Origin: Verrucomicrobiia bacterium
Lineage (GTDB): Bacteria; Zixibacteria; MSB-5A5; DSPP01
Reading direction: 5' to 3'
Length of the DNA stretch: 64,000 bases
Assembly: GCA_035574275.1 (NCBI GenBank)
Contig: DATLYY010000017.1
Location: 1,057-65,056, forward strand
Of the stretch, positions 13,239-47,330 are shown one piece after another; the stretch's first letter is position 1, and each line of letters starts with the position of its first letter. A program made the translations under genes and the position numbers. The notes beneath the pieces are model-generated. The model did not search any database and had not been told where the DNA came from. It saw only the letters and a list, made by a program, of their open reading frames with translations.

Positions 13239-15368
13239 CTAACAGGGTAACGTCGTACCTGAAAAAACCAGATTCAACTCAAGAACCACATCCGCTGGAG
13301 TTAAATTGCTGGAGCAGTTCAGGTCGGCCACCGAAAGAGGGCAAGTGCCCGTGCCCGCAAAAACACAGTTCAACATCAACACGACATCAGAGGGTGAAAG
13401 CTGTCCATCGTTGGAAAGGTCCCCCTTGATGCCGGAGAAAGGTTTTCGGGGAAGGGTCGTAAAAATCGTGCTATCGACGCGGACTTGTACCCCGCTTACC
13501 ACCAGCGAATCGAACAAACTGGCGGGCGGCGGTACGAAGTGCAGAGTGTAGGTGCCGGGCACGAGAATGCCAGCAAAACTACCGACGGCATCGGTTGTAC
13601 CCTTGGTCAAGGGAACTTCCGGAGAACCAAAGGCCCGCACCCGCACACCGGAAATCGGGTTGGCGGACGAATCGCGAACCGTGCCGGAGAGCTCCACGCC
13701 GTGGCGCAAGGTCAAATTGATTGCCGTGTCATTTACAATGGAAGCTCCCGCAAATGAGGCTCCCGCGAAGCGGGAAGCCAAGGGCGGCGTGTAGGCCAAA
13801 TCGAGTGTGCCCGGCGGAACGACGACTTCATAATATCCGGTTGAATCGGTGTTATCGGAAGGAGTGTATAGTTCGTTTCCGGACGAGGTGATGAAAGCGT
13901 CGAAATCCACCTCGAAGATTGGAATGTTCGACGAATCCCTGATGAATCCCGAAACAACCCGCCCGGAATCGAGCGTAACATTCAGGGTCATATTGGAATT
14001 GAGCGCAAAATTGGGGAAATCTTTGGCCGCCCGGCGGATGGATTTGGGCGGTTCGAATTCGACCGTGTAGCTGCCTGGCACGGCCACCACCGAGTAATTC
14101 CCCAACGCGTTGGTAAAGTGATTGGCTAAAGGCACCTTGGCGCCGGTCGCCGAATTTACAAATTTTATGTTTATGTTGGAAAGCCCGCCACCGCCCGCGC
14201 GCTGCACATTACCGGAAAGGGTGAATCCGGCCAGAACGGTGGCGTTTAATGTTCGGTCGGCGGCTACTGCCACGTGCAAGCTTTCCACCGGTGCCAGACC
14301 GGAAACCACAGGCGGCTGGAAGGTGACATCGTAGGCCCCCGCAGGCACCACGATTTGATAAAAGCCGGTGCCATCCGTGAAATCGAACGGGGTGGGGATT
14401 TTGGTGTTGGTCAGCGTGTCGTGCACGTCGATATCGACGTTGGCCACCCCGGCGTTGTCGCTGGCGCGACGGACGAATCCGGAAAGATACAATCCGGGTT
14501 GCAAGACGAAGTCAATCGACGTATCCTTGGTTACAGGCACAGAAAATTTCAGCCCGGCTATCAATTTGTCATCCACCAAGGGCTCCACGGTTATGTCGTA
14601 AGTCCCGGCTCCCACCACCACCTGATAAAAACCGTTGTTGTCTGTATTGTCGTTTGGCGTGGGGATGCGGGCCTGGGTGGCGGAAACATCAAAGTCCATA
14701 TCGGCATCCCGAACCGGCTGGCTGTTATTGTCGACGACCGTGCCGGAAACGAAAAAGCCGGCTTGCAACACCACGTCCCGTGTCTGGTTGGAGTTGAAGA
14801 TTATCCCCTTGAATTCTGCTGCCACCAGTTTTTGGGCGGCGACGGGGCGATAGGTCAACGTGTAAACTCCATTCGCGGGAAGCACCAATGAGTAAAAACC
14901 GAACGGATCGGTGTTGTCGGTCGGGTTGGGCGTGTAGACCAACTGTCCCGTCAACTCATCGGTGACATTCAAATCAATATCCGGCTGACCCACCCCGGCC
15001 GTATCCCGCACGAAGCCGGAAAGGGTGAAGCCGAGCGGCACGGTGTCGTTGAACACCTGGTTGCCGGAAAGCAGGTAGCCCGTGTTGTAAACGGGTGCCA
15101 GATTGCTGACCGCTGGCGGCGTAAAGGCAACATCGTAGGTGCCCGCGGGCAGGCCAAAGGGCTGGTTCAAATTGTAGTTTCCCAAAGCGTCTGTTTTGTC
15201 AGTCAAAATCCCCACGGGATTGCCATTGATGTCATATAAATCTACATCAACGTTTGCAATCCCTGTCCCGTTGGGATCGGTGATTTTTCCGGACAGGGTA
15301 AACTGGGCCTGCGTTCCGGATGCCAGCCCCAAAATCAAAACGATACTCCAAACCAAACGCCCGAACAT
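13239..15368 (-). CDS. Secreted repeat protein with ~7 CarboxypepD_reg-like (Cna-B/transthyretin-like) domains and a C-terminal dockerin-like double EF-hand module
   Basis: Start set at the internal Met (MFGRLVWSIVLILGLASGTQA signal peptide; GGAGG RBS) rather than 15524. It has repeating ~100-aa units (…SGFVRD…G…D…T….TD..GFY…P.G.Y.L…P). The C-terminus is GDLSNDGQLSPSDVVLMLNCVF…ADLNCSSNLTPADVVLELNLVF…LPC, two dockerin-type Ca-binding repeats. It is the last gene of a translationally coupled operon. Confidence 0.75.
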   Translation of the reverse strand: MFGRLVWSIVLILGLASGTQAQFTLSGKITDPNGTGIANVDVDLYDINGNPVGILTDKTDALGNYNLNQPFGLPAGTYDVAFTPPAVSNLAPVYNTGYLLSGNQVFNDTVPLGFTLSGFVRDTAGVGQPDIDLNVTDELTGQLVYTPNPTDNTDPFGFYSLVLPANGVYTLTYRPVAAQKLVAAEFKGIIFNSNQTRDVVLQAGFFVSGTVVDNNSQPVRDADMDFDVSATQARIPTPNDNTDNNGFYQVVVGAGTYDITVEPLVDDKLIAGLKFSVPVTKDTSIDFVLQPGLYLSGFVRRASDNAGVANVDIDVHDTLTNTKIPTPFDFTDGTGFYQIVVPAGAYDVTFQPPVVSGLAPVESLHVAVAADRTLNATVLAGFTLSGNVQRAGGGGLSNINIKFVNSATGAKVPLANHFTNALGNYSVVAVPGSYTVEFEPPKSIRRAAKDFPNFALNSNMTLNVTLDSGRVVSGFIRDSSNIPIFEVDFDAFITSSGNELYTPSDNTDSTGYYEVVVPPGTLDLAYTPPLASRFAGASFAGASIVNDTAINLTLRHGVELSGTVRDSSANPISGVRVRAFGSPEVPLTKGTTDAVGSFAGILVPGTYTLHFVPPPASLFDSLVVSGVQVRVDSTIFTTLPRKPFSGIKGDLSNDGQLSPSDVVLMLNCVFAGTGTCPLSVADLNCSSNLTPADVVLELNLVFSGTTLPC

Positions 15369-15397: not shown

Positions 15398-16936
15398 TCA
15401 GCGAATCAAGGCCGCCTTTAAGACTTTCTCCATTCGTTGCAAACCGCTCGTTTCCCGCAGGATTATTTTGCAGAAGTAAACCCCGGATGCGGCCGGTTCG
15501 CCGTTGTCGTTGTGTCCGTTCCAAAACAGTTCGCGCCCGTTTATCTGGCCGCCAGAAAGTTTTTTTTCCTCCTTAAAAACGATTTCCCCCGCTGGGGTGA
15601 AGATAGTGAGCAATGCCTTCCAATTGCCGGACAGAGCAGTCAAATCAACCGGAAAGTATATGAAGGAGTTTACCGCCGGACGAAAGGGGTTGGGATAAGC
15701 ATCCAGAATCCGCTCCTCGCCGGGGGGGGTAATCCGCACCGGCTGGCCGGGGAGCGTAACGTCAATGGTGGTGTCGTTCAATACCTGCACCAACCCTGGC
15801 AGCGTGTCGGCGAGGAAGTTGGTCGCGCCGGCCGGCGGATTGATAACAATCGTGTAACTGTCCGGAGGGACGGCGACTTTGATTACCCCAAATTGGTCGG
15901 CGTTGTCGGTTGGGGTGAACATTTCATTCGAGGGAGGAGGAAATTCGCGAATCACGTCCAAATCAGCAAAAGGCACCGGTTTATTTAGAGAGTCAACGAC
16001 ACGCACGGTCAGAAGGACGCCTCGGTTAAGCGTTTGGGTGATGGAGGTATCCGAAGTCAGCGCAAAAGAGCGCACTTTCTTGGCTACAAAGTGAGAATCT
16101 CGCGGCGGTACGAAAAGAAAATCATACATGTTGCCTGGGGCTACCACGGTCAGTTTGCCCAGCGAATCGCTCGTGTTGCGGGGAAGAAAGATTTTGTTCC
16201 CCAACGTGTCTTCTAAATCCAAATCCACGCCGGCAATCGGCGTTCTGGCTGGATTAAACGTCGTATCGATAGTCGTAGCGGAAACAAAAAAGCCGGAGCG
16301 AATGGTGACGTTAATGACCGTATCGCGGCCGGAAATTTTCACCGTATCCAACTGTAGCCCCACCTGTCTCCGTCCCGGGGCCGGGGCGTAGCGGAAGCGG
16401 TAGGCGCCGTTGGGAATGACGATTCTATAGTTGCCCAAACTGTCGGTCTTGTCGCCGGGGGTGAAAAGACGTTTCTTGCTGACCCAGTCGTCCACCGCCA
16501 AATTGATGGAGTCGATCGGCTTTCCCGCCGTGTCGGTCGCCTGTCCAGCGACGGCCCAGCCAAATCCAAGACGTATGTCCGGCAGGACGCGCGATGAAAA
16601 AAGTGGGACGCTTAAAGTTTCCTTTGCAACCAAATTTGTGTTATACGGATAGAGCGGATCATAAGTAATCCGATATGTGCCGGGTGTGCTGACGCAAACG
16701 CTATAATAGCCCGAAGAATCGGTGTTATCGCAAACGTAGGGCATTTTGAACCCCAGTAAGAAGAAATCCAAATCAACTTTCCGCACTGGTTTGCCATTGG
16801 CATCCACTACGCGCCCCTGTATAGTGAGTTGAGGGGGAGCACAAACCTGCGGACACTGGCAAAAGCTTTTCTTGGGGATTACGGTTAGTAGGGCGAAGGA
16901 CATTCCCAGGAAGAGAACGGGACAAAATTTGGACAT
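15398..16936 (-). CDS. Secreted repeat protein (CarboxypepD_reg-like domains) with a T9SS C-terminal sorting domain (Por_Secre_tail/TIGR04183-like)
   Basis: Signal peptide, then repeats paralogous to the 13239-15368 protein. The C-terminus …YPNPFRPAVNSFIYFPVDL…LLTIFTPAGEIVFKEE…GRELFWNGHNDNGEPAASGVYFCKIIL…EKVLKAAL matches the T9SS CTD consensus. Confidence 0.8.
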   Translation of the reverse strand: MSKFCPVLFLGMSFALLTVIPKKSFCQCPQVCAPPQLTIQGRVVDANGKPVRKVDLDFFLLGFKMPYVCDNTDSSGYYSVCVSTPGTYRITYDPLYPYNTNLVAKETLSVPLFSSRVLPDIRLGFGWAVAGQATDTAGKPIDSINLAVDDWVSKKRLFTPGDKTDSLGNYRIVIPNGAYRFRYAPAPGRRQVGLQLDTVKISGRDTVINVTIRSGFFVSATTIDTTFNPARTPIAGVDLDLEDTLGNKIFLPRNTSDSLGKLTVVAPGNMYDFLFVPPRDSHFVAKKVRSFALTSDTSITQTLNRGVLLTVRVVDSLNKPVPFADLDVIREFPPPSNEMFTPTDNADQFGVIKVAVPPDSYTIVINPPAGATNFLADTLPGLVQVLNDTTIDVTLPGQPVRITPPGEERILDAYPNPFRPAVNSFIYFPVDLTALSGNWKALLTIFTPAGEIVFKEEKKLSGGQINGRELFWNGHNDNGEPAASGVYFCKIILRETSGLQRMEKVLKAALIR

Positions 16937-35743: not shown

Positions 35744-35764
35744 TATGTAACACCGATTTAACAT
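35744..35764 (+). promoter_or_regulatory. Conserved 19-nt motif TGTAACACCGATTTAACATT (TTAACA-type direct repeats with 11-bp periodicity), candidate OmpR/PhoB-family binding site
   Basis: GTAACA-ccgat-TTAACA about 45 nt upstream of the response-regulator gene start at 35807. A near-identical copy is at about 41792-41812. Confidence 0.5.
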
Positions 35765-35806
35765 TGGGATCACACAACCGAAACAGCCGTTGACGAGAAT
35801 AGCAGC

Positions 35807-36526
35807 GTGGGACAAGAAAAGCTTTTAATCGTCGAGGACGAAGCCGACCTGTCGCGTCTTTTGTCCTCCTCCTTCACCCGGGAAGGATTTTTGGTGGAAA
35901 CCGCCGCTGACGGGGAGGAAGGGGTGGAAAAAACCTTCCGTTTCTCGCCGGATTTGATTCTTCTGGACCTGCTTTTGCCCAAGCTCGACGGCTTTTCGGT
36001 CTGCCGCTATTTGAAAAGCCGGGAGGAGACCAAGGCCATTCCCATTTTAATGCTTACCGCCAAGGGGACGGAAGAGGACAAGCTGAAAGGGTTGGAGTTG
36101 GGGGCCGACGATTATGTCACCAAACCGTTTTCCATCCGCGAGCTTTCGGCCCGGGTCCGCTCCATTTTCCGCCGCCGCTACCAGAGCGACGCCGGAAAAC
36201 TGAAGGCGGCCGACCTGGAAATCGACTCTCGCCAGCTTTCCGTTGCCCGGGGAGGCAAATCGCTCTTTTTGACCCCCATCCAGTTCCGGTTGCTCTATGT
36301 CTTGGCCAGCCAAAAAGGGCGGGTGATGTCCCGAAGCGAACTATTGGACCGGGTCTGGGGATTTGACGCCGTTTTGACCGACCGGGTGGTGGATGCCCAA
36401 ATCAAACGCCTGCGCCAAACCCTGCGCCGGGTGCTGGGGGAAGACCGCTACATCAAAACCGTGCGTGGTGCGGGGTATCGGTTCACGGCTCCTCCGGAAA
36501 AAGGGGAGAACGGTTCTCTTTCCTGA
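35807..36526 (+). CDS. OmpR-family response regulator (orphan; no cognate kinase adjacent)
   Basis: REC (LLIVEDEADLSRLL…DLILLDLLLPKLDG…) and a Trans_reg_C winged helix (…VMSRSELLDRVWGFDAVLTDRVVDAQIKRLR…). GTG start. Confidence 0.85.
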   Translation: MGQEKLLIVEDEADLSRLLSSSFTREGFLVETAADGEEGVEKTFRFSPDLILLDLLLPKLDGFSVCRYLKSREETKAIPILMLTAKGTEEDKLKGLELGADDYVTKPFSIRELSARVRSIFRRRYQSDAGKLKAADLEIDSRQLSVARGGKSLFLTPIQFRLLYVLASQKGRVMSRSELLDRVWGFDAVLTDRVVDAQIKRLRQTLRRVLGEDRYIKTVRGAGYRFTAPPEKGENGSLS

Positions 36527-36555
36527 TAAAAATCGGACTGGAAAGGAAAAAAGTT

Positions 36556-36777
36556 ATGAAAAGGATTGAACTCAAACCGGTCCGGCCCGTCAAGGATTAC
36601 TGGTTTACCCATGGGCTGCAGGAACTCTCGCCGGAAAAGTTTTTGAAGGTCGTGACCAAAATTTTGAACGGGGAATATGTGCTGTTGCACTTCCCCTGCG
36701 CCCGGACGCTCGGTTCCCCATCGGAATTGCGGAACGGAAGCCCGGAAATTTTACCAAGCAATGGGAGGATGAAATGA
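36556..36777 (+). CDS. Hypothetical small protein (73 aa) overlapping the TonB-receptor start by 4 nt
   Basis: ATG after a GGAAAGGAAAAAAG purine-rich stretch. The N-terminal half is non-repetitive (KDYWFTHGLQELSPEKFLKVVTKILNGEYVLLHF). ATGA overlap with the downstream gene. No recognisable domain. Confidence 0.35.
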   Translation: MKRIELKPVRPVKDYWFTHGLQELSPEKFLKVVTKILNGEYVLLHFPCARTLGSPSELRNGSPEILPSNGRMK

Positions 36778-39710
36778 AACGAATACTCGCAACACTCGTG
36801 ATACTTTTAATGATGCCTTACCTGCCTGTTTTTTCGCAGGAATTGCCGGCGGCCGATTCCCCGGCCCTGGCCCAAAACGGCGGCCCACACCCCCCCACCG
36901 GCCGGATTTCCGGCAAGGTGGTGGACGGGGAAACCGGTGAACCGATTATCGGCGCGCGGGTCTTCATTGAGGGAAGCGCTCCCACCATCGGCGCCCTTTC
37001 CGATTTGAACGGTAACTACACCTTGAGAAACGTCCCGCCCGGCAATCACACAATCGTGGTCACTTCTCCCGAGTACGCCAAAGTGGTAATCACCGGCTTG
37101 GCCCTGGGGGAAAATGAAACCAGGCAGGAGGATTTCTCCTTAAAACCGGAAATCAAACAAATCGAGGGGGATGTGGTGGAAGTAATTGCCAAGGTCTCCC
37201 GCCGCAGCGCGGCGGGGCTTTTGAAGGACCGGCAAAAAGCGGCTGCCTTCTCGGATGCCATCGGCGCCGAGGAAATGTCCCGCACCGGAAGCGGCAACGC
37301 CGCCCAGGCGATGAGCAAGGTGACCGGCACCACCATCGTGGACGGCAAATACGTCTACGTTCGCGGGCTGGGGGAGCGCTACAGCACCACCCAGTTGAAC
37401 GGCGCCGAACTCCCCTCCACCGACCCGAACAAACGGGCCGTGCATCTGGACCTTTTCGCCTCCAACCTGATTGAAAACATCGTCACGGTGAAATCCTACA
37501 CCCCGGACAAGCCCGGGAATTTCACCGGCGGCAGCGTCAACATGGTCACGAAGTCCTATCCCGACCATTTCAATGCCAACTTTTCCCTTTCCAGCGCCTA
37601 CAATACTCAATTCAGCTTGCAGGAAGGGCTTTTGACCTATCCGGGCGGCCATACCGACTGGCTGGGGATGGATGACGGCACTCGGGATCTTCCCGACCCC
37701 TTAAACGACCCGAATGTGGCGATTCCCCACATCACCACAACCCGCCGGGACACCGCCGCCGCCAACCGGCTTGACTTTTTGTCCAAATCGTTCAACTCCA
37801 ATATGGCTCCCATCAAAAAGATGGCTCCCTTGAACCGGAATTTTGCCTTTTCGCTGGGGGATCAGGTGCAGGTTTTGGGACGCCCGCTCGGTTTTTTGGG
37901 AAGTTTGAGCTATACCCGCGGCTTTAATTCCTACACCGGCGGCACGGCCGCCCGCTGGGAACTCTTGGACAATGTCAACAATGCCGACTCCTTGGCGGCG
38001 AATTATATTTTTAATGACTCCAAAAGCTCCGATGAGGTGATCTGGGGGGCTTTGGCCAATCTTACTTACCAGCCCCACCCAAAACACGAGTTTAAAACCA
38101 CCTATATGTACAACCGCAGCGGGGAGTCGGTGGCCCGTTACTTGTACGGCACGATGCTCCAAGGGGGCGGATTGGGTCCAAGCGACGTGATGGAAACCAG
38201 AGTTTTGCAGTATACGGAAAGGGCTTTGGGTTCCTTTCAGCTTTCCGGGCGCCACGCCCTGCAACCCCTTCTGAGAATGGATTTAAACTGGAGCGGCTCG
38301 CTGGTTAAATCGAAGCAGGATGAACCGGACTTGCGCTATTTTTCCAACCATTACACCGTGGACAGCAGCGCCGGAACGCCCGATACGACCTACGACACCC
38401 GCACCAATGCGTATGACCTGCCGACCCGCAATTACCGCAATTTGAACGAGGACAACGCTGAATTCAATATGGATTTTTCCATCCCGTTCAAACAGTGGAA
38501 GGGCCTCGGCGGCAAGCTTAAACTGGGAGGATACCTACTGAGTAAGGAGCGCGCCTTCCGGGAAAGGCGGTTTATTTACGAGCAGGACATTTCCTTCTAT
38601 GAGGGGGATCCGGAAACCTATTTCTCCGACACGGTGGTGGGGATAAACGAGCAGTACAGTGGCGGAGGAATCACCCGGTTTGGAAACTATATCGTTCAGG
38701 ATAACACCGGCCGCAGCAATTACGATTCAGACCAAAAAATTTCGGCCCTTTTCGGAATGCTTGACTTTCCCATTCTGCGCCGGCTCCGCTTTGCCGGCGG
38801 CATCCGCTTGGAAGCCACCCGGATGAATCTGACCAGCAAGGACACCTCCCTGGCCAAAGCCCATCTTTTCAACAACGACTGGCTCCCTTCTGCCAACTTG
38901 ATTTATCAATTGCGCCCCGATATGAATTTGCGGGCTTCTTATTCCCGCACGCTGGCCCGGCCGGAATTCCGGGAGCTGGCCCCCTATTCCAGCTTTGATT
39001 TCGTGGGGGATTACGTCTACGTCGGCTACCAAGACCTCAAACGGACGCTGATTCACAACTACGATTTGCGCTGGGAATGGTTCGAGCGTCCCGGCGAGCT
39101 TTATTCAATCAGCGGTTTTTACAAACGGTTCATCGGTGCGATTGAGCGGGTCAAAGTCACCGGCGAGTTGGGGGTAAGTTCCCGCAACGTTCCGGAAGCG
39201 AATGTGTACGGACTGGAATTGGAAGTCCGCAAGCGGCTGGACAACGTAGCTCCGTTTCTGGCGCACTTCCAAGTGGGGACCAACTTAACTTTGGTTCATT
39301 CCACGGTGGATATTGATTCGTTGGAGTTAAGGATTATTCAGGGATACGACCCGAATCCCAAGACCACCCGGGAACTGCAGGGGCAATCCCCCTTCATCTT
39401 AAACTTGGACGTGTCCTACAGCAACTACAAAACGGGTACCACGGCCAGTGCGCTGTATAACGTTTTTGGCAAACGGTTGGCGGAAGTAAGCAAGGGCGGA
39501 GCTCCCAACGTGTTCGAGGCGGCCCGCGGACAGTTAGACTTCACCCTTTCCCAGCGGATTTGGAATGCTGTCACTTTCAAGGCCTCGGCCAAGAATCTCT
39601 TGGATTCGGAGTATAAGAAGGTCTACACCTTCAAAGGCCAGGAATACCCGGCCTTGGTTTACAAAAAAGGACGCGTCTTTTCCGCTGGCTTCAGTTGGGC
39701 TATCGATTAG
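36774..39710 (+). CDS. TonB-dependent outer-membrane receptor with an N-terminal CarboxypepD_reg domain (SusC/RagA-like architecture)
   Basis: Signal peptide. CarboxypepD_reg domain (ISGKVVDGETGEPIIGARVFIEGS…GNYTLRNVPPGNHTIVVTSPEYA). Plug domain (…KYVYVRGLGERYSTTQLNGAELPSTDP…). ~700-aa beta-barrel. 978 aa. Confidence 0.85.
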   Translation: MKRILATLVILLMMPYLPVFSQELPAADSPALAQNGGPHPPTGRISGKVVDGETGEPIIGARVFIEGSAPTIGALSDLNGNYTLRNVPPGNHTIVVTSPEYAKVVITGLALGENETRQEDFSLKPEIKQIEGDVVEVIAKVSRRSAAGLLKDRQKAAAFSDAIGAEEMSRTGSGNAAQAMSKVTGTTIVDGKYVYVRGLGERYSTTQLNGAELPSTDPNKRAVHLDLFASNLIENIVTVKSYTPDKPGNFTGGSVNMVTKSYPDHFNANFSLSSAYNTQFSLQEGLLTYPGGHTDWLGMDDGTRDLPDPLNDPNVAIPHITTTRRDTAAANRLDFLSKSFNSNMAPIKKMAPLNRNFAFSLGDQVQVLGRPLGFLGSLSYTRGFNSYTGGTAARWELLDNVNNADSLAANYIFNDSKSSDEVIWGALANLTYQPHPKHEFKTTYMYNRSGESVARYLYGTMLQGGGLGPSDVMETRVLQYTERALGSFQLSGRHALQPLLRMDLNWSGSLVKSKQDEPDLRYFSNHYTVDSSAGTPDTTYDTRTNAYDLPTRNYRNLNEDNAEFNMDFSIPFKQWKGLGGKLKLGGYLLSKERAFRERRFIYEQDISFYEGDPETYFSDTVVGINEQYSGGGITRFGNYIVQDNTGRSNYDSDQKISALFGMLDFPILRRLRFAGGIRLEATRMNLTSKDTSLAKAHLFNNDWLPSANLIYQLRPDMNLRASYSRTLARPEFRELAPYSSFDFVGDYVYVGYQDLKRTLIHNYDLRWEWFERPGELYSISGFYKRFIGAIERVKVTGELGVSSRNVPEANVYGLELEVRKRLDNVAPFLAHFQVGTNLTLVHSTVDIDSLELRIIQGYDPNPKTTRELQGQSPFILNLDVSYSNYKTGTTASALYNVFGKRLAEVSKGGAPNVFEAARGQLDFTLSQRIWNAVTFKASAKNLLDSEYKKVYTFKGQEYPALVYKKGRVFSAGFSWAID

Positions 39711-39748
39711 GAGCTTTTCCTAAGACCGCACGCTAAGTTTTCGCCACA

Positions 39749-39780
39749 AGCCAACCCCCTGCAAGGGGTTGGCTTTTTCT
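39749..39780 (+). terminator. Rho-independent terminator after the TonB-dependent receptor gene
   Basis: AGCCAACCCC-ctgcaa-GGGGTTGGCT followed by TTTTTC. Confidence 0.8.
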
Positions 39781-40068
39781 TTAGTCAAAGACGGGCGATT
39801 TCCACTTCTCTCAAAATGACCAATTTGTCATACAATCGCCATAGATACGAAACATCGGTTTTTTAAGTTGGGTCTGCCTCGCAGTTTACAGATGGATTGG
39901 AATGAATGTTTGCAGGAAAGGAGGGGAAAGATTGGAAAGTCAGGACCGTTCGGCTCAATCCTGACTTTCCGCCGTGAAAAACACTTCCACCTAAAAAAGT
40001 CGGGCCGGCAGCCCGAGGAAAAGGCATGGTTTTGTTGTGAACTTAAAATCACTCACAAGGAGGAATAA

Positions 40069-41703
40069 ATGCTTCGCAGATTTCTGTTGTCGGTTTTTGC
40101 GGTTGCGCTTTTGGCGGCTGCCGCTGGGGCCCGTCCCACCGACACCGGCAAACCGGTCAAGCCGGTTTTTGATGCGGATTTGACGGGGTCGAGCAACGTT
40201 ACTTGGTATCCGGATACGGTTTACAATCTCAAAAACCTCGTTTACTTGGAGTCAGGTGGCAAACTGACCATCCTCCCAGGAACGATTATCAAAGGGGATA
40301 CGGGTCGGGCGGAAAATGTGAAGGCCCTGGTCATCTGCCGGGGCGCCAAGATTGATGCTCAAGGAACGCGGGCCAACCCGATCGTCTTCACTACTGCACT
40401 AGACACGGTCGATTCCCAGACCGACCTATTGGTGGATGACAGGGGGCTGTGGGGCGGCTTGGTGCTTTGCGGCCAGGCCCGCATCTCAGACGGCAAGTTT
40501 GAAGACGTGGTCGAAGGGCTTCCCTTGGTAGGCGGCCAGCCCGACCCCCGCTCCCTCTACGGTGCCCCCGGCGGAGACACCACCCTCTTTAACGATGACG
40601 ACAGCTCGGGGGTTTTGCGTTACATCTCTGTACGCCACAGCGGAAGTGTGCTTCTGGCTAACGTTGAGCTTAATGGCTTGATGTTCGGCGGGATTGGCCG
40701 GCGGACGGTTATCGACCATGTGGAGTCCTTCGGCTGCGCCGACGACGGTTTCGAATGGTTTGGCGGCACAGTGAACATCAAGTATATGGTCGCTTCCTAT
40801 GGGGACGATGATGAGTACGACACAGACGAGGGGTATCGGGGACGGGTTCAGTTTGGGCTCCGCTATATGAGCGATTTGGTGGGGAACAACGGCAGCGAAA
40901 ACGATGGCGCCGAAAACCCGATTACCACGACCCCCTTTACCAATTATGACTGGCGAAACTTCACTTTCATCGGTTCGGGGCTGGGGGCGGTGAACAACGC
41001 CAACGACCGGGCGTTTCACATCCGCGACAACGCCGCCCCCCGGTTGCGCAACAGCATCATCACAGAATTCGACGAGTTGGCATTGGCGTACGAAGCCACC
41101 AACACCCTGCCGGTGGTGGGGACCGATTATATAATGACCGACAACATCTGGTGGCGCTTCGGCTGCAACGGCGGCGCGGCGGGAGCCCTAGGGTTGGCCT
41201 CTTGCGTCGTCGATCCCGGCGCGCAGGGGATTTCCGCTTATCTGACCAATCCGGCCAACAACAACGACGAAGTGGACCCGATGCTGACCGCCATCGGCCG
41301 CCCGCACGTTTATAACGCCCGGGTTCTGGACCCCCGCCCGCAAATCGGCAGCCCGGCCGCCAGCGGCTATCCGGACCCGTCCCTTTCCGACCCGTGGTTT
41401 ACTTCGGTCACCTATGCCGGCGCCTTTCCGGTCAACGATGTTACCACCAACCCGGACGGTAACTGGCTCTGCGGCTGGACCGCCTTGGCCCAGTACGGAT
41501 TTTTGACCCTGCGGCGCGGAGATCTGGACAACAACGGCAGTTTCTCCCCGGCCGACGTGGTGACCCAGTTGAACACGGTTTTTGGCGGCTTGCTGAAGGA
41601 TTACTGCCAGGCGGACACAAATTGCGACGGCCAGCTTACGCCCGCCGACGTGGTTAACGAACTCAATCTGGTATTCGGCGGGTCTCCTCTGCCCTGCATC
41701 TAA
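40069..41703 (+). CDS. Secreted protein of unknown function with a C-terminal dockerin-like double EF-hand module
   Basis: Signal peptide MLRRFLLSVFAVALLAAAAGA. ~480-aa Asp/Gly/Asn-rich body with no motif I recognise. The C-terminus GDLDNNGSFSPADVVTQLNTVFGG…ADTNCDGQLTPADVVNELNLVFGGSPLPCI is homologous to the C-terminus of the 13239-15368 protein. Confidence 0.8.
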   Translation: MLRRFLLSVFAVALLAAAAGARPTDTGKPVKPVFDADLTGSSNVTWYPDTVYNLKNLVYLESGGKLTILPGTIIKGDTGRAENVKALVICRGAKIDAQGTRANPIVFTTALDTVDSQTDLLVDDRGLWGGLVLCGQARISDGKFEDVVEGLPLVGGQPDPRSLYGAPGGDTTLFNDDDSSGVLRYISVRHSGSVLLANVELNGLMFGGIGRRTVIDHVESFGCADDGFEWFGGTVNIKYMVASYGDDDEYDTDEGYRGRVQFGLRYMSDLVGNNGSENDGAENPITTTPFTNYDWRNFTFIGSGLGAVNNANDRAFHIRDNAAPRLRNSIITEFDELALAYEATNTLPVVGTDYIMTDNIWWRFGCNGGAAGALGLASCVVDPGAQGISAYLTNPANNNDEVDPMLTAIGRPHVYNARVLDPRPQIGSPAASGYPDPSLSDPWFTSVTYAGAFPVNDVTTNPDGNWLCGWTALAQYGFLTLRRGDLDNNGSFSPADVVTQLNTVFGGLLKDYCQADTNCDGQLTPADVVNELNLVFGGSPLPCI

Positions 41704-41763
41704 TGCCTTTTGGTTGGCGCCTCTCGACTTGCTCCTCTCCAAGACGAGCCTGTCGAAGGTAAA

Positions 41764-41792
41764 GCCGGTCCGCTTTGCGGGCCGGCTTTTTT
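41764..41792 (+). terminator. Rho-independent terminator after the dockerin-tailed protein gene
   Basis: GCCGGTCCGC-ttt-GCGGGCCGGC followed by TTTTTT. Confidence 0.8.
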
Positions 41793-41812
41793 GTTAACGC
41801 CGATTTAACATT
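41792..41812 (+). promoter_or_regulatory. Second copy of the 19-nt motif (TGTTAACGCCGATTTAACATT), candidate Pho-box-like site upstream of the porin-pst operon
   Basis: TTAACG-ccgat-TTAACA starts 2 nt after the terminator T-run and lies ~60 nt upstream of the porin ATG at 41870. 18/19 identical to the copy at ~35745. Confidence 0.5.
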
Positions 41813-41869
41813 AAAGTAATTTGGCGGCAACATGAAAGGTGTATCTATGACAGTGGAGAGGAGCAAAAT

Positions 41870-43099
41870 ATGAGAGGACTGCTAAAAGCTGTGTTAACAG
41901 CGGTATTGCTGGCTCCGACGAGTCTTTGGGCGCAGGATGCGGCCACGGACAGCCTGAAGGAGCGGATGAGCGAAACGGCCGACAAAATCGCCGGGATCGA
42001 AGAGCGCTTGGGGATTGCGGAAACCGACATCGCCGGGTTGAAGAAACTGAAGATTTCCGGCTACGTGCAGGCCCGCTACGAGTACCATGATGACGCGTCC
42101 AGCGCCCCGCTGCAGGGGACGGTGTCAACCTCGTCAAGTAACCAAGGCAAGCTTTTGAACCGATTCTTTATTCGGCGGGGCCGGGTCAAAACCACGTATC
42201 AGGCGACCCCCAACGCCTTGGGAGTGGTTTATTTCGACGGTTCCGCCTCCGGGGTTTCGCTCAAAGAGGCCTACGTGGCCGTAACGGAACCCCGTTCCAA
42301 AGTTACCGCGACGCTGGGGCAGTTCAACTGGCTTTTCGGCTATGAAATCTCGTTTTCATCTTCCAAGCGGGAGTTTCCGGAGCGGGCCCGCTGGTCCCGC
42401 ACGCTCTTCCCGGGGGAACGGGATCGGGGCATCAAGCTGGAGCGTCCGTTTCTTTTGATGGGAAAATACAACCTTACGCTTCAAGCCGGAGTGTACAACG
42501 GCAACGGCATCGAGGACGTCGGTTTTGGAGTTCGAGACCCGAACAAGTGGAAGGATTTCATCGCCCGGGCCGCTTTCGGTCTGGGGCATCTGGATTTCGG
42601 GCTCTCCGGCTACTGGGGAAAGCAGTTCAACCCAAGCGACTCGGCCATTCCCGTCCAGCGTCCTTCTACCTCTGACAAAATCCGCTACGGGGCGGACGCC
42701 CAGTTCTTCTATGAGCTGCCGGTTTTGGGAGGCGGGGTACTGAAAGCGGAGGGGGTTTTGGCCGAGGAGCCGAAAAACCAGTCCAAGCCGTTCCGCTCGT
42801 TGGACTCCACCCGCAACGCCGCCGGCCTCCACGCCGTTTGGGCGCAGAATCTGAAGGAAAAATTCCAGTGGATTTCCCGCGTGGACTTTTACGACCCGGA
42901 TCGGGACATCGACGAAGATCACTTCATCACCTACGGCTTCGGACTGATATATTTCTGGGACGGCGCCAGCAAACTGAAGCTGGTATACGAACTGCCCAAA
43001 TCGTTCGTCAACAGCCGCTCCGGTACGGTTACCGTGAACGGGGTAAAAGAAGATGAAAAGGACAACATTCTGACTTTGGAATGGGTCTACACGTTCTAA
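41870..43099 (+). CDS. Outer-membrane porin, phosphate-selective porin O/P (OprO/OprP)-like, with an N-terminal coiled-coil segment
   Basis: Signal peptide …LWAQD; heptad-like SLKERMSETADKIAGIEERLGIAETDIAGLKKLKISGYVQARYEY, then beta-strands; C-terminal …TLEWVYTF. It sits immediately upstream of pstS. Confidence 0.65.
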   Translation: MRGLLKAVLTAVLLAPTSLWAQDAATDSLKERMSETADKIAGIEERLGIAETDIAGLKKLKISGYVQARYEYHDDASSAPLQGTVSTSSSNQGKLLNRFFIRRGRVKTTYQATPNALGVVYFDGSASGVSLKEAYVAVTEPRSKVTATLGQFNWLFGYEISFSSSKREFPERARWSRTLFPGERDRGIKLERPFLLMGKYNLTLQAGVYNGNGIEDVGFGVRDPNKWKDFIARAAFGLGHLDFGLSGYWGKQFNPSDSAIPVQRPSTSDKIRYGADAQFFYELPVLGGGVLKAEGVLAEEPKNQSKPFRSLDSTRNAAGLHAVWAQNLKEKFQWISRVDFYDPDRDIDEDHFITYGFGLIYFWDGASKLKLVYELPKSFVNSRSGTVTVNGVKEDEKDNILTLEWVYTF

Positions 43100-43122
43100 A
43101 ACAAAACCAAAAAGGAGGAGAA

Positions 43123-43989
43123 ATGAAAAGAATACTCGCACCCCTTCTGATTGCGCTGGGATTCAGTTTCGGCTCGATTGGGCTGGGACTGGCCGGCAAG
43201 ATGATCACGATGAAGGGCTCGGACACGATGGTGATCTTGGGTCAGCGCTGGGCCGAGCAGTATATGCAGAAAACCCCCGGCGCCGTGATTCAGGTTACCG
43301 GCGGCGGCAGCGGCACTGGCATTGCAGCCCTCATCAACGGCACCACCGACATCTGCCAGTCCTCCCGCCCCATCAAACCGTCCGAAAAGAACAAAATGAA
43401 GGAGCGCTACTTCACGCAGGGAATTGAAATTCCGGTGGCTAAGGACGGGTTGGCCGTTTACGTGCACGAGTCCAACCCGGTGGACAAGCTGACTATAGAG
43501 CAGGTAAAGTTGATTTACACCGGCAAAATCACCAACTGGAAGGAACTCGGCGGGCCGGATGCCAAAATCATCCTGTACGGCCGGGAAAACAACTCCGGCA
43601 CCTATGTGTTCTTCAAAGACAACGTTTTGATGGGGGCCGATTTCGCCCCGCAGACCGCCACTTTGCCTGGCACGGCGGCCGTCGTGAACGCCGTTTCGAA
43701 AGACAAAAATGGCATCGGCTATGGCGGTGCCGCTTACGCCAAGGGGATCAAGGAGTGCGCCTTGGCGGAAAAAGCGGGTGCCCCGGCCTACGGCCCGACG
43801 CTCGAAAACGTGCAGAGCGGCAAGTATCCTTTGGCCCGCGACCTGTACTGGTATTTCCGCACCAAGCCGGCCGGCGACGTCAAAAAACTGGTGGACTGGG
43901 TACTATCGCCGGAAGGCCAGAAGGTCGTTTCCGAAGTCGGCTACTTCCCGGTCAAAAGCACCAAACCCTCGGCGGATGCGGAAAAATAG
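43123..43989 (+). CDS. pstS: Phosphate ABC transporter substrate-binding protein PstS
   Basis: Start at MKRILAPLL (AAAGGAGGAG RBS). PBP superfamily with the PstS signature GSDTMVILGQRWAEQY…VTGGGSGTGIAALINGTTDICQSSRPIK. Confidence 0.9.
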   Translation: MKRILAPLLIALGFSFGSIGLGLAGKMITMKGSDTMVILGQRWAEQYMQKTPGAVIQVTGGGSGTGIAALINGTTDICQSSRPIKPSEKNKMKERYFTQGIEIPVAKDGLAVYVHESNPVDKLTIEQVKLIYTGKITNWKELGGPDAKIILYGRENNSGTYVFFKDNVLMGADFAPQTATLPGTAAVVNAVSKDKNGIGYGGAAYAKGIKECALAEKAGAPAYGPTLENVQSGKYPLARDLYWYFRTKPAGDVKKLVDWVLSPEGQKVVSEVGYFPVKSTKPSADAEK

Positions 43990-44033
43990 TTCCGCTTGAT
44001 TCTCTCCGGGAGAAGATATACCTTGGAGGAAAG

Positions 44034-44939
44034 ATGGACAAAAAAAAACTCGTTGAGCTCGGGGTGGAGCTTCTGGTCTATCTTTCCTCCTGGGTTTCCA
44101 TTTTGGGGATCGTCTTCCTATTCATTTTCATCGGCAAGGAGGCCTTTCCCCTTTTAACCGACCCCCGGATGCGGGAGGAAGTCCACCTTTCCCAGCTCTG
44201 GACCTCTGTCTGGCAGCCGGTTTCGGATGTACCGAAGTTCGGCCTGATTCCGCTTTTCATCGGCACTTTGAAAGCCTCTTTCGTGGCAATGCTTTTTGCC
44301 ACCCCGCTGGCCATTCTGGCCGCCATTTTTACTTCCGAGTTCGCCCCTCCCCGTTTGGGACGGGCCATCAAACCGGCCGTTGAGCTTTTGGCCGGCATTC
44401 CGTCTGTCGTTTTGGGATTCTTTGCTTTGGTTGTTTTGGCTACCTGGGTGCAGGGGCTTTTCGGTTTCACCATGCGGTTGAACGCCACCGCCGCCGGCAT
44501 CGCTTTGGGGCTCGCGGTACTCCCCATCATTTACACCGTGACGGAAGATGCCTTGGCCACCGTGCCGAAAGCGTTTCGCGAGGCCTCCTTGTCCCTCGGT
44601 GCCACGCCGTGGCAGACCGCCTTCAAAGTGGTTTTACCGGCCGCCCTGCCGGGGATTTTCGCCGCCTTGGTTTTGGGGTTCGGCCGGGCGGTGGGGGAGA
44701 CGATGATTGTCTTGATGGCCTCCGGGAATGCCTCGATTGTCAGCGCCAACTTGGGGGACTCCATCCGCACTCTGTCCGCAACCATCGCGGCGGAGCTGGC
44801 CGAAGTGGTCTTCGGCGACGGGCATTACCGACTCCTGTTCGGCCTCGGGGTGATGCTTTTTTCCTTCACCTTCGTTTTGAATCTGGTCGGCAGCTGGTAC
44901 ATCCAGCGGGTTAAAAAACGGCTTTTGGGGGCGGCGTGA
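44034..44939 (+). CDS. pstC: Phosphate ABC transporter permease PstC
   Basis: Start at MDKKKLVELG (GGAGGA RBS) rather than the long upstream extension, which has Arg/Gly-rich low-complexity content. BPD_transp_1 permease with the EAA-loop region. Confidence 0.9.
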   Translation: MDKKKLVELGVELLVYLSSWVSILGIVFLFIFIGKEAFPLLTDPRMREEVHLSQLWTSVWQPVSDVPKFGLIPLFIGTLKASFVAMLFATPLAILAAIFTSEFAPPRLGRAIKPAVELLAGIPSVVLGFFALVVLATWVQGLFGFTMRLNATAAGIALGLAVLPIIYTVTEDALATVPKAFREASLSLGATPWQTAFKVVLPAALPGIFAALVLGFGRAVGETMIVLMASGNASIVSANLGDSIRTLSATIAAELAEVVFGDGHYRLLFGLGVMLFSFTFVLNLVGSWYIQRVKKRLLGAA

Positions 44940-45826
44940 AAGACAAGCTTTTCGTCGGCCTCTCGGCCGCCGCCATGCTGGTCATTTTGGCGATGCTGGC
45001 CGTCATTCTCGGTAACATTTTCTGGTTCGGCAAGGATATGCTCTCCTGGGAATTCATCTCCGCCAAACCGACGATGGGAATGACCGAAGGGGGAATTTTC
45101 CCCGCCATCTTCGGCACGGTCGCTCTGGTTTTCTTGATGTCGATCGCCGTGATGCCGGCCGGCGTTCTGACCGCCGTTTACCTTGAAGAGTACGCCCGGG
45201 CCGATTCCAAAATGGTCAAACTCGTCCAGCAGGCGGTCGCCAATCTGGCCGGCGTCCCGTCCATTGTTTTCGGCCTTTTCGGTTTGGGGTTTTTCGTCAA
45301 CTTCGTCGGCCGGGGTGTGGATGGGTTGTTTTTCGGTGGCGAACTCTACTACGGTCAGCCGGCGATTATCTGGGCGGCCGCTACGCTGGCCCTTTTGACT
45401 CTGCCGGTGGTGATCGTCACCACTTCGGAAGCGCTGCGCGCCGTGCCGCGCGAAATAAAAGAAGGGGGCCTGGCGCTCGGCGCCACCCGCCTTCAGAACC
45501 TCCGACGCATCATCATACCCTCCGCCCTCCCCGGTATTCTGACCGGCGGCATTCTGGCGGTTTCCCGCGGCGCCGGGGAGGTGGCCCCGATTATGTTCAC
45601 CGGCGCGGCCTATTTTCTTCCCTATCTGCCTACCAAGCCGAACGACCAGTTTATGGAACTCGGCTACCACGTCTACGTGATGGCCACCCAGTCGCCGGAC
45701 GTGGAGGCAACCAAGCCGATTTTGTATTCCACCGTGTTGGTGCTTTTAGCTTTGACTTTCCTTTTGAACCTTTTGGCCATATACTTGCGGGCGCGGCTGC
45801 GCAAACGATTTGCCGAGGGACGCTGA
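44936..45826 (+). CDS. pstA: Phosphate ABC transporter permease PstA
   Basis: Overlaps pstC by 4 nt; PstA-type permease (…[47 protein letters not shown]…). Confidence 0.9.
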
Positions 45827-46671
45827 TGGAACTGGTAAACGAGGAAATTGAAACGGTGACCAAACTGCCCCAATTCCGGCTGGACGCCATCGGCCGGCCG
45901 GAAACCGTCCCGGCCGAGCGGGAAAAGATTCGGATAGAGAATTTTTCCTTCTGGTACGGAAAAACAAAGGCCTTGGACGACATCACCAGCAAAATTTACG
46001 AGCACCGCATCACCGCTTATATCGGCCCCTCCGGCTGCGGCAAGTCCACCTTTCTGCGCTGTTTGAACCGGATGAACGATTTGATTCCCCACACCCGCTG
46101 GGAGGGAAAAATCTTTTTGGAGGAGGAGGAAATCTCCCGCCCCAAGCCGGATTTTACCGCGCTCCGCCGGAAGGTGGGGATGGTTTTCCAGAAATCGAAC
46201 CCCTTCCCCAAATCGATTTTTGAAAACGTGGCCTTCGGGCTGCGCATAGCCGGGGAAAGCAACGCCGAAAAGCTTTCCGCCGCCGTGGAAGAGAGCTTGA
46301 AGCAGGCGGCTTTGTGGGAGGAGGTTAAGGATAAGTTGGAGCGTTCGGCTTTGGCTCTTTCCGGCGGCCAGCAGCAGCGGCTCTGCATCGCAAGGGCTTT
46401 GGCCGTCCGGCCGGAGGTTTTGCTTCTGGACGAACCCTGCTCGCAGCTGGATCCGATTTCGACCGCCAAAATCGAAGAACTCCTGCTCAATTTAAAGAGC
46501 CGCTACACCATCGTTCTGGTCACCCACAATATGCAGCAGGCAGCCCGCGTTTCCGACTTTACCGGCTTTTTCCTCCTTGGACAACTGGTGGAGTTCGACG
46601 ACACCCGGAAATTGTTCACCAACCCGGCTGACAAGCGTACGGAAGATTACATCACCGGAAGGTTCGGATAA
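45826..46671 (+). CDS. pstB: Phosphate ABC transporter ATP-binding protein PstB
   Basis: Walker [10 protein letters not shown], signature [15 protein letters not shown], and the PstB-specific N-terminus ([16 protein letters not shown]). Confidence 0.95.
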
Positions 46672-47330
46672 TGCAAAGGCACTTTGACGAGGAACTGGGG
46701 CTCATCAAAAAAAAGCTGGCCGAGATGGCCGGGTTGGCGGAGGGGATGATTTCCCGTGCCGTGCAAGTTTTGGTTGAGCGGGATTCGAAACTGGCGGAAG
46801 AAATCTGGCCGGATGAGAAGGAAGTGAATTCAAAGCAGCTGGATATTGATGAGGATTGCCTGAAACTTCTGGCCCTCCACCAGCCGATGGCCACCGATTT
46901 GCGCTTCCTGGTGGCCACCCTGCGCATCACCGGAGAGCTGGAACGGATTGCCGACCAGGCGGTCAACATCACTCAGGCGGCCTTGGTGTTGATTGAAAAG
47001 CCGGAGCTAAAACCGCTTATCGACATCCCCCGCATGGCCACAGTGGCGGCCGGAATGGTGAAGGATAGCTTGGATTCCTTTGTGAAAAAAGATCCGGCGT
47101 TGGCCCGGCAGGTGCTGGAGCGGGACAACGAAGTGGACGCCTATAAGGATCAGATTTTCCGCGAGCTTTTAACCTATATGTTCTCCGACCCCAAATCGAT
47201 TGAGCGGGCCATCGAACTCATCTTGATCTCTCGCCATCTCGAACGGATTGCCGACCACGCCACCAACATCGCCGAAGACGCCATCTACTACGTGGAAGGG
47301 CGCGACGTCCGTCACCACGCCGCCGAGTAG
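46671..47330 (+). CDS. phoU: Phosphate signalling complex protein PhoU
   Basis: Two PhoU repeats, each with the ELERIADQAVNI / HLERIADHATNIAED motifs; start overlaps the pstB stop. Confidence 0.9.
   Translation: MQRHFDEELGLIKKKLAEMAGLAEGMISRAVQVLVERDSKLAEEIWPDEKEVNSKQLDIDEDCLKLLALHQPMATDLRFLVATLRITGELERIADQAVNITQAALVLIEKPELKPLIDIPRMATVAAGMVKDSLDSFVKKDPALARQVLERDNEVDAYKDQIFRELLTYMFSDPKSIERAIELILISRHLERIADHATNIAEDAIYYVEGRDVRHHAAE

Follow-up and report, generated by a model that had tools for sequence, protein, structure and literature searches.

Cysteine-bearing dockerin modules at the extreme C-terminus of diverse exported proteins: a candidate surface-retention tag in a Zixibacteria-like lineage

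Cellulosomes of Gram-positive bacteria are the textbook setting of dockerins, whose role in other systems is largely obscure. The type I dockerins (PF00404; e.g., 5lxv_B, 2mte, 1ohz_B and 8x39_A) are modules of ~60-70 aa with two F-hand repeats and D/N/D...D Ca ligands; those of clostridia and ruminococci have a three-helix fold and near-identical repeats, are usually C-terminal, and occur in many copies per genome. The T9SS type A C-terminal domain (CTD; PF18962/TIGR04183) is a beta-sandwich of ~80-100 aa (Por_Secre_tail), found lineage-wide on Sec-exported, surface-bound proteins of many kinds, and serves as a translocation signal removed by cleavage. In NCBIfam/TIGRFAMs usage, 'Choice-of-anchor' domains denote families whose C-terminal sorting signal differs from lineage to lineage; sortase, exosortase and T9SS signals are the documented alternatives, and we know of no dockerin listed among them. 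Among non-cellulosomal dockerin/cohesin systems of FCB-group candidate phyla is that of Ca. Stygibacter (Cloacimonadota), a diderm that also uses T9SS CTDs. There, signal-peptide-bearing, non-cellulase cargo has C-terminal dockerins and has been proposed to dock on a tandem-cohesin scaffoldin held in its turn by a T9SS CTD (PMC8542988).

The stretch of DNA analyzed here (the window, 64 kb) encodes two proteins, predicted to be exported, with a similar C-terminus. ORF A (40069..41703, plus strand, from the ORF list) is 544 aa long and consists of a signal peptide, a Beta_helix_4 (PF28492) body and a C-terminal Cys-dockerin; PF28492 is also present in the precomputed Pfam annotation of its homologues. 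The predicted Sec signal peptide, read from the translation, is MLRRFLLSVFAVALLAAAAGA (40069..40131, plus strand) and has no lipobox cysteine. Its putative cleavage site was placed by eye, and the AF2 model of the full-length protein (pLDDT 87.6) begins with a helix at residues 2-20 followed by a low-pLDDT segment. The body is modeled as a beta-helix with only weak PDB matches. ORF B (13239..15368, minus strand), for which an independent gene call in public data gives an identical 709-aa product, has at least six CarboxypepD_reg repeats and the same kind of C-terminal module.

The modules span residues 483-544 of ORF A (41515..41700, plus strand; delimited by BLASTP, the PDB-dockerin profile, the module model and Foldseek) and 648-709 of ORF B (13242..13427, minus strand). 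In a composition-adjusted BLASTP alignment, ORF A 483-543 and ORF B 648-709 were identical at 36 of 62 positions (58%), with one gap and an E-value of 3e-16; no other part of the two proteins aligned significantly. The original prediction of a common C-terminal module on otherwise unrelated secreted proteins therefore holds in both halves, and it survives the test of alignment significance that it had itself named. A six-frame motif scan of the window found exactly two modules (four half-repeats), those of ORF A and ORF B. The DNA of the two copies agrees at 56% of positions, nowhere in an unbroken run of more than 8 nt; the likeness has therefore been kept at the protein level and does not reflect a recent copy. 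The possibility that the likeness is biologically meaningless, a chance match of biased sequences or the product of local duplication or gene conversion in the very recent past, has practically nothing to recommend it: we found no evidence in its favor, chance is contradicted by the composition-adjusted alignment, and public data hold hundreds of independent family members. Recent duplication or conversion is ruled out by the DNA divergence.

A dockerin is recognized by two tandem segments of ~22 residues, each comprising a 12-residue EF-hand-like Ca loop (ligands at positions 1, 3, 5, 9 and 12) and a helix, and this arrangement was found in both ORF A and ORF B. In ORF A, loop 1 runs from D485 to D496 and loop 2 from D516 to D527, with helices at 494-506, 509-515 and 525-537; ORF B has two equivalent loops. 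Both loops are intact, with D/N/D/D at positions 1/3/5/12 of each. Across the subfamily, D occupies positions 1 and 12 in 95-100% of 161-169 modules. Positions 3 (N/D) and 5 (D/S/N) agree with the consensus in 71-85% (161 modules), and substitutions there are mostly D, N or S. The consensus of one repeat is nearly that of the other, as in dual-binding type I dockerins. What sets both repeats apart from those of type I dockerins is T-P-A-D-V-V at loop positions 9-14 and L-N-x-V-F at positions 17-21.

Searched against the PDB, a profile of seven modules matched 5lxv_B (E 3.8e-6), 2y3n_B (1.5e-4), 2mte_A (CelS; 1.3e-3) and 1daq_A (1.4e-3), and no non-dockerin scored better than E 0.48. The AF2 model of the isolated module (pLDDT 92.8) has the three-helix dockerin fold. 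In a Foldseek search of the PDB its best 30 matches were all dockerins (TM 0.73-0.84, rmsd 1.5-2.3 A, probability ~1.0), and the tail of the full-length ORF A model superimposed on 8x39_A at 1.8 A. The earlier description of the module as dockerin-like is thus borne out by profile and predicted fold, the latter being the structure prediction that it had called for. We conclude that the C-terminal 62 residues of ORF A and ORF B are, as judged from sequence and modeling, a Ca2+-binding dockerin of type I-like form.

Unlike typical type I dockerins, the two copies in the window fall below the Pfam gathering thresholds. The ORF B tail scored 13.5 bits (E 0.084) against Dockerin_1 (PF00404), for which the threshold is 22.9 bits, and the ORF A tail had no Dockerin_1 match, only weak EF-hand matches. 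EF-hand models (PF00036/PF13405) scored 15-16 bits on the tails against cut-offs of ~25, and no NCBIfam model matched the isolated tails. Only 4 of 62 subfamily members reached Dockerin_1 at E 1e-5. These sequence comparisons support a distinct dockerin subfamily.

A further difference from type I dockerins lies in the cysteines, which come as one to three pairs with one Cys at or next to the last residue. The module of ORF A has C513, C519 and C543; that of ORF B has cysteines in helix 1 (LNC), in the linker (GTC), at position 4 of loop 2 (LNC) and in the terminal LPC. It had been claimed that the Cys positions of the two copies match. This is correct for loop-2 position 4 and for the terminal L-P-C, the only two that truly align, and incorrect for the remainder, since C513 of ORF A and the helix-1 and linker cysteines of ORF B are members of two different optional pairs. 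The predicted partner of Cys513 is an upstream residue, Cys468, in the WLCGWT motif of ORF A (41470..41472, plus strand); the T9SS-tagged orthologues of ORF A have WxxGWT without a Cys at this site.

Counted by HMM column, the loop-2 Cys is present in 97% and the terminal Cys in 99% of modules, and in 153 of 161 the last Cys stands at the very end of the protein or no more than two residues before it. The helix-1 Cys co-occurs with the linker Cys (p=1.5e-23), and the upstream Cys with the CxAD Cys (p=2.6e-21); distant subtypes have exactly the loop-2 and terminal cysteines. Because the three pairs are present or absent together, one to three disulfides are predicted, and these co-occurrence statistics suggest that the module is probably disulfide-stapled. 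The proposal of a distinct Cys-containing subfamily is sustained by the three co-occurring pairs and the sub-threshold Pfam scores. It is not sustained by the loop-2 Cys alone, which is shared with a solved dockerin of Ruminococcus flavefaciens (5lxv_B; DLNCDG in loop 2) and so is not unique to the subfamily. We found no literature on dockerin disulfides, and the paper on 5LXV does not mention one.

An exhaustive HMMER search returned 4161 representatives at E<=1e-3; with the cut-off tightened to E<=1e-10, there were 407 cluster representatives. The module ends within three residues of the protein C-terminus in 160 of the 177 matches examined (about 90%). In one related MAG, ~29 tagged proteins were found within the ~150 kb sampled; this count comes from one narrow pattern drawn from the 7-sequence alignment and essentially from that single MAG, and has little bearing on taxonomic breadth. 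Taxon labels of the module-bearing lineage conflict, Zixibacteria being the most frequent, with Verrucomicrobiae/Limisphaerales and Ignavibacteria also represented; the hosts are probably uncultivated diderms of the FCB type, unlike those of clostridial and ruminococcal dockerins.

The cargo is diverse. Sixty-two cargo proteins matched 45 Pfam families, and the main ones among the 25 listed were FG-GAP, HYR, BNR/Sortilin, Beta_helix/NosD, BACON, CarboxypepD_reg and peptidases M6 and M23. No glycoside hydrolase was among those 25, in contrast to cellulosomal cargo, and the module is not a cellulosome component in the sense of a dockerin on GH, CE, PL or CBM proteins that degrade plant cell walls. 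The lineage attaches its Cys-dockerin to dozens of unrelated Sec-exported proteins at their extreme C-terminus. What was originally suggested from two proteins, a tag on unrelated secreted cargo, thereby extends to a much larger set, and its slot is one that a T9SS domain can also occupy.

This last point emerged from the relatives of the two cargo families. In both, more distant relatives have a T9SS type A sorting domain in the place of the module: ~69 of 120 Beta_helix_4 relatives have the PF18962 CTD, and CarboxypepD_reg family tails comprised 31 of dockerin type and 31 T9SS CTDs. (T9SS tails were classed with precomputed Pfam annotation and a CTD HMM built from PF18962-annotated tails.) Each family has at least five mutually exclusive C-terminal elements, distributed by lineage, and in this resembles the 'Choice-of-anchor' families. 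The module itself is no T9SS CTD. It is a 62-aa, Ca-binding helical domain without sequence similarity to the beta-sandwich, PF18962 did not match ORF A or ORF B, and the CTD HMM gave no match at the C-terminal tail of either. Nothing points to cleavage of the Cys-dockerin, as opposed to the T9SS CTD. In its position at the extreme C-terminus of diverse Sec-exported cargo, however, it is placed just as the T9SS CTD is. We found no literature joining Zixibacteria with dockerins or with T9SS.

The genomic context of ORF A illustrates the exchange. Directly upstream is a TonB-dependent receptor (CarboxypepD_reg, Plug and barrel by Pfam; 36774..39710, plus strand), and downstream are a 409-aa protein and then pstS, pstC, pstA, pstB and phoU (41870..47330, plus strand; Pfam). 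The receptor/ORF A pairing is conserved at two other loci, L021 and L022, which share the pst/phoU synteny and carry a Cys-dockerin, and at the distant locus L023, where the same context comes with a T9SS CTD. The 409-aa protein matched no family and no PDB sequence. An exopolysaccharide-type cluster (glycosyltransferase/alginate-export) has ORF B at its end.

These observations bear on whether the module sorts or anchors. It might be a secretion or sorting signal analogous to the T9SS CTD, read by a dedicated outer-membrane export or sortase-like system that may remove it or modify its terminal cysteine, rather than a cohesin-binding anchor. Such a function would account for the extreme C-terminal location of module and last Cys and for the exact filling of the CTD slot in two cargo families, and it would need no cohesin, of which we found none (see below). 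We nevertheless consider it unlikely. A small, Ca-binding, three-helix dockerin fold is unlike the beta-sandwich CTD, and the conserved, symmetric helix surfaces resemble a binding interface. T9SS CTD proteins are present in the same genome, and in one MAG a bona fide T9SS CTD protein adjoins a Cys-dockerin gene, so the lineage did not simply swap one signal for another. Moreover, cellulosomal dockerins are also typically C-terminal, and we know of no secretion system that uses a dockerin as its signal.

Type I dockerins bind a cohesin module in a Ca2+-dependent manner. In a six-frame phmmer --max search of 280 kb (the window and 23 loci, L001-L023) with the CipA cohesin as query, checked against the PDB, no cohesin was found (best E 0.26), although divergent ones may be missed, as a preprint reports for sequence searches. 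Pfam likewise identified none in 10 neighboring proteins; together these are a small sample. So far this differs from Ca. Stygibacter, in which a tandem-cohesin scaffoldin was found; the Cys architecture and the T9SS CTD swap in relatives are not described for that organism (PMC8542988). The module could be imagined to have no protein partner, and to be a Ca2+-dependent, disulfide-stabilized stability or solubility module or a binder of some non-protein envelope component, such as LPS or the exopolysaccharide from the cluster that ends at ORF B. The empty cohesin search and that cluster fit this reading, as do the dockerin-like modules reported for non-cellulosomal organisms (Peer et al. 2009). 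Yet cargo in unrelated genomic contexts, such as the Pho locus of ORF A, carries the same tag. Both helix faces are highly conserved over hundreds of cargos, which suggests one specific ligand, and a role in stability alone would account neither for strict C-terminal placement nor for exchange with the T9SS CTD. We judge a module without a protein partner to be decidedly improbable.

On balance we lean, by a modest measure, towards the Cys-dockerin as a modular tag for cell-surface retention, with one receptor shared by all cargo; the model proposed for Cloacimonadota is a precedent. The cargo would be exported by Sec, and the module would fold around two Ca2+ ions, with a core disulfide between the loop-2 and terminal cysteines (C519-C543 in ORF A) and optional ones between the helix-1 and linker cysteines and between the upstream and CxAD cysteines. 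Its two near-identical helix faces would then dock non-covalently on a common surface receptor, a cohesin-like module or an analogue, and so hold the cargo on the cell; ORF A would thereby sit next to the TonB-dependent receptor encoded in a locus for phosphate acquisition. In related phyla, surface display of these cargo families would rely instead on the T9SS C-terminal domain.

A bolder version is a long shot. In it, the Cys-dockerin would be the recognition element of a hitherto undescribed surface-display system parallel to T9SS in Zixibacteria-like diderms, in which dozens of exported cargos are fixed to an outer-membrane receptor of their own. Beyond forming an internal staple, the invariant terminal Cys would help to make the attachment, either covalently (disulfide or thioester type) or in a redox-switchable way, and related Cys-terminated two-repeat tags would be lineage-specific versions.

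The retention-tag proposal does not account for the route by which cargo crosses the outer membrane, and the empty cohesin search in 280 kb and the sub-threshold Dockerin_1 scores of both copies in the window also count against it. Strict C-terminal placement together with exchange for a secretion signal would be expected of a sorting signal no less than of an anchor.

A well-delimited dockerin subfamily thus appears to serve one lineage of uncultivated diderms as a C-terminal tag throughout the genome, carried by adhesin-like proteins and proteins of nutrient acquisition and not by cellulases. The natural dockerin/T9SS swap offers a testable hypothesis for non-cellulosomal dockerins, namely surface retention. 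The predicted staples and the terminal Pro-x-Cys provide an annotation signature for hundreds of proteins that Pfam and NCBIfam mostly leave untagged, and protein engineering could make use of so compact a Ca-dependent docking module, possibly locked by disulfides.

Some neighbors of the tagged genes have features of their own. A secreted protein of ~470 aa beside the mini-dockerin genes of locus L017 had no Pfam or PDB sequence match. Next to ORF B is a CarboxypepD_reg paralogue without a dockerin (15398..16936, minus strand), whose tail weakly resembles a T9SS CTD or FlgD_ig domain. This reading is tentative because the Pfam scores are below threshold both in the paralogue (FlgD_ig, E 0.0076) and in its orthologue at locus L010 (479-2005; FlgD_ig and CHU_C at ~1e-3). 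ORF B itself matches the CTD HMM weakly at an internal site, residues 103-154 of the translated frame (E 3.3e-4); similar internal matches occur in its L010 orthologue.

The C-termini of two exported proteins of the window, ORF A (40069-41703, plus strand, 544 aa) and ORF B (13239-15368, minus strand, 709 aa; the same product length in an independent public gene call), align as the original prediction had claimed. BLASTP of the whole proteins paired residues 483-543 of ORF A with residues 648-709 of ORF B (36/62 identities, one gap, E 3e-16) and found no significant similarity elsewhere, which agrees with the claim that the hosts are otherwise unrelated. A six-frame motif scan located exactly two modules in the window, these two. 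At the coding-DNA level the copies are 56% identical with a longest common run of 8 nt; therefore, the module is conserved at the protein level, and the same values rule out recent copying between the two genes. Both N-termini, read from the translations, are typical Sec signal peptides without a lipobox cysteine. The body of ORF B comprises at least six CarboxypepD_reg repeats (Pfam). That of ORF A had no match in the local Pfam copy; its homologues carry the precomputed annotation PF28492, named Beta_helix_4, and the AF2 model of ORF A (pLDDT 87.6, pTM 0.88) has an all-beta, right-handed beta-helix-like body with weak PDB matches (top, AlgG, E 0.017).

We conclude that fold, Ca loops and profile homology identify the shared tail as a dockerin, though one unrecognised at Pfam's own threshold: Dockerin_1 gave the ORF B tail 13.5 bits, short of its 22.9-bit cut-off, and did not report that of ORF A, and NCBIfam matched neither. 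A profile of seven modules searched against the PDB returned exclusively dockerins at the top of the list (5lxv_B, 3.8e-6; 2y3n_B, 1.5e-4; CelS and 1daq, ~1.3e-3). The module-only AF2 model, from a 28-sequence alignment, contains three helices (pLDDT 92.8), and its top 30 Foldseek PDB matches were dockerins without exception (30/30; TM 0.73-0.84, rmsd 1.5-2.3 Å, probability ~1.0). The tail of the full-length ORF A model gave independent agreement, superimposing on 8x39_A, a C. thermocellum dockerin, at 1.8 Å. Calcium ligands are kept in both 12-residue loops, with D1 and D12 near-invariant and positions 3 and 5 mostly N and D, varied by conservative substitutions. The two repeats have a near-identical consensus (D-x-N-x-D-G-x-L-T-P-A-D-V-V-L-x-L-N-x-V-F-L-G), the same internal symmetry as in type I dockerins. 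These observations bear out the dockerin-like character first proposed for the module, and we regard the structural identity of this C-terminal tag family as secure, with very little room for doubt. The module is not a cellulosome component. Non-cellulosomal dockerins are already known, including in FCB candidate phyla (PMC8542988), and the cysteine-bearing module (Cys-dockerin), a well defined, widespread and testable finding, is an extension of a known class. Our literature searches found no work linking Zixibacteria with dockerins or T9SS, and none describing disulfide-stapled dockerins.

When 1.84 billion cluster representatives were searched exhaustively with the module profile in HMMER, 4161 proteins matched at E≤1e-3, of which 407 reached E≤1e-10. 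The dominant consensus was KGDLNGDGxLTPADVVLMLNCVFLGTGNCDLCFADVNCDGxLTPADVVLELNxVFLGxPFPC. The module ended within three residues of the protein C-terminus in 160 of 177 sequences, and the last cysteine was followed by no residue in 78, one in 45 and two in 30 (n=161). Across 169 modules the cysteines form three pairs, each either present or missing as a unit. The core pair is near-invariant (loop-2 position 4, 97%; terminal cysteine, 99%). The helix-1 cysteine co-occurs with the linker cysteine (table [[30,1],[10,128]], p=1.5e-23), and a cysteine lying within the 25 residues before loop 1 co-occurs with that of 'CxAD' ([[53,10],[13,93]], p=2.6e-21). ORF B adds the helix-1/linker pair to the core and ORF A the upstream/CxAD pair. 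The predicted match of cysteine positions thus holds for the loop-2 position-4 cysteine and the terminal L-P-C, but not for the remaining cysteines, which belong to different optional pairs. The upstream cysteine of ORF A is C468, in the body motif W-L-C-G-W-T; in T9SS-tagged orthologues the motif is W-x-x-G-W-T, without cysteine. Distant dockerin-type tails among ORF B relatives contain exactly two cysteines, both at core positions. From the pairings we predict between one and three disulfides within the module. By itself the loop-2 cysteine does not set the subfamily apart, since the loop of R. flavefaciens dockerin 5lxv_B also reads DLNCDG; the paper on that structure mentions no disulfide. 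The three co-occurring pairs, together with scores below the Dockerin_1 cut-off, support the proposal that the cysteines define a distinct dockerin subfamily.

A scan of species-representative genomes with one narrow peptide pattern gave 20 loci, and one MAG, CAZSIT01, accounted for 19. It is related to the window organism: its locus L010 shares synteny with the ORF B region and encodes a 76% identical ORF B orthologue. In the ~150 kb sampled from it, ~29 proteins bear the module, always C-terminally and often in adjacent gene pairs. Pfam matched 45 families on 62 tagged proteins, including FG-GAP (23 proteins), HYR, BNR/Sortilin, Beta_helix/NosD, BACON, CarboxypepD_reg and peptidases M6 and M23; no glycoside hydrolases were among the families listed, and Dockerin_1 at 1e-5 matched 4/62. 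The suggestion of a tag common to unrelated secreted proteins is well sustained by this range. Source labels conflict (Zixibacteria for most relatives, also Limisphaerales and Ignavibacteria; the nearest relatives of ORF A and ORF B bear one or another of the three), and an NCBI contig of 67.9 kb, identical to the window and encoding protein P0301, which is 100% identical to ORF B, is labelled 'Verrucomicrobiae bacterium'. The taxonomic assignment of the lineage is therefore provisional.

We found that the Cys-dockerin and the T9SS type A C-terminal sorting domain (CTD, PF18962) take each other's place on the same cargo families, in a clean natural swap of domains. PF18962 is present on ~69 of the 120 best ORF A relatives (precomputed Pfam, counted from the table). 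The six closest (51-94% identity; one, P0005, is a fragment that spans 56% of the query) all carry the Cys-dockerin, and others have a second dockerin type, with a CC...DIGDLTxLIxxLFI repeat, or further tails. The junction is identical throughout, the tag following the conserved G-W-T-x-L-x-Q-x-G motif that ends the body. Two loci from Zixibacteria-labelled MAGs, L021 and L022, show synteny with the window and have the Cys-dockerin; in L023, from a distant genome, pstSCAB lies beside a TonB receptor of the same type, and the Beta_helix_4 protein after the receptor ends in a T9SS CTD. A search with the ORF B body alone showed the pattern again in an unrelated cargo family, with 31 tails matching the dockerin-module HMM and 31 T9SS CTDs. 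ORF B's own subtype occurs in its ~13 closest relatives (at least 58% identity), and T9SS-CTD-tailed relatives are 28-44% identical; the remaining tails include several further Cys-terminated two-repeat modules. In the window, adjacent CarboxypepD_reg-repeat paralogues (13239-16936, minus strand; syntenic in L010) have unlike tails, a weak T9SS-CTD/FlgD_ig-like one at 15398-16936 and the Cys-dockerin on ORF B.

At least five other Cys-terminated two-repeat C-terminal modules swap on the same cargo families (tails of P0025, P0094 and P0314-P0356), for example CC..DIGDLTxLIxxLFI, NILDLTFxVDRIFRGG..C, FNIADVTxxIARIFSGG..C, DVVxxVNVAFRG..DPCP and GDWNGS..VNYIFN. Such interchangeability suggests that uncultivated lineages have a broader superfamily of dockerin-like tags.

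The evidence best fits a modular tag that retains its cargo at the surface. C-terminal position (160/177) and cargo range support the original view of a sorting or anchoring tag, and of the two it is anchoring that we infer. Cargo would be exported through Sec; the module would fold around Ca2+ with disulfide staples and dock non-covalently, via two conserved helix faces, on a common receptor. A published model for Cloacimonadota offers a direct precedent: there, cargo bearing a dockerin sits on a cohesin scaffoldin, which in turn is anchored through a T9SS CTD (PMC8542988). In the main rival reading the module acts as a sorting signal in its own right, like the CTD, an idea that fits its strictly C-terminal position and the conservation of the last cysteine; against it stand the dockerin fold, the symmetry of the binding-type surfaces and the coexistence of T9SS tags with the module. 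The two systems do coexist, since in CAZSIT01 the gene immediately upstream of one Cys-dockerin gene encodes a protein with a bona fide Por_Secre_tail (34.7 bits, cut-off 27). The weak point of surface retention is the lacking cohesin partner: a verified cohesin query found none in the window and related loci (280 kb, a small sample), nor did Pfam in 10 neighbouring proteins. A recent preprint reports that sequence-based detection misses divergent cohesins. On balance we lean slightly towards a receptor-docking surface anchor.

Docking would keep ORF A beside its TonB-dependent receptor. Their phosphate-type locus (33180-47330) runs from a response regulator and histidine kinase through a second response regulator, the receptor, ORF A and a 409-aa protein to pstSCAB-phoU. 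Recurrence of the receptor and Beta_helix_4 pair beside pstSCAB in L023 suggests a conserved phosphorus-acquisition pair. The 409-aa protein, without Pfam or PDB match, has an N-terminal coiled coil and is possibly an outer-membrane porin. In the close relatives L021/L022 (3063-5483) an insertion encoding a DNA methyltransferase and a BsobI-like endonuclease separates the histidine kinase from the second response regulator; this restriction-modification pair is absent from the window (~35320-35807). ORF B is the last gene of a minus-strand cluster, where the CarboxypepD_reg pair lies downstream of an alginate-export-type porin, DUF5666 proteins, two APH-like kinases, an ABC exporter and glycosyltransferases (up to ~28978).

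Locus L017 (140-4201) holds two tandem cassettes, each encoding a ~470-aa secreted protein, then a ~150-aa protein with little beyond a signal peptide and a Cys-dockerin. The ~470-aa proteins, which had no Pfam or PDB sequence match, are candidate docking partners. Five proteins of ~1000-1200 aa (P0152-P0155, P0162) gave 6-12 tandem module-profile matches in the HMMER search, as internal arrays rather than a terminal tag; at least P0155 and P0162 have subtilisin-like sequence near the C-terminus, and the five may come from a different lineage.
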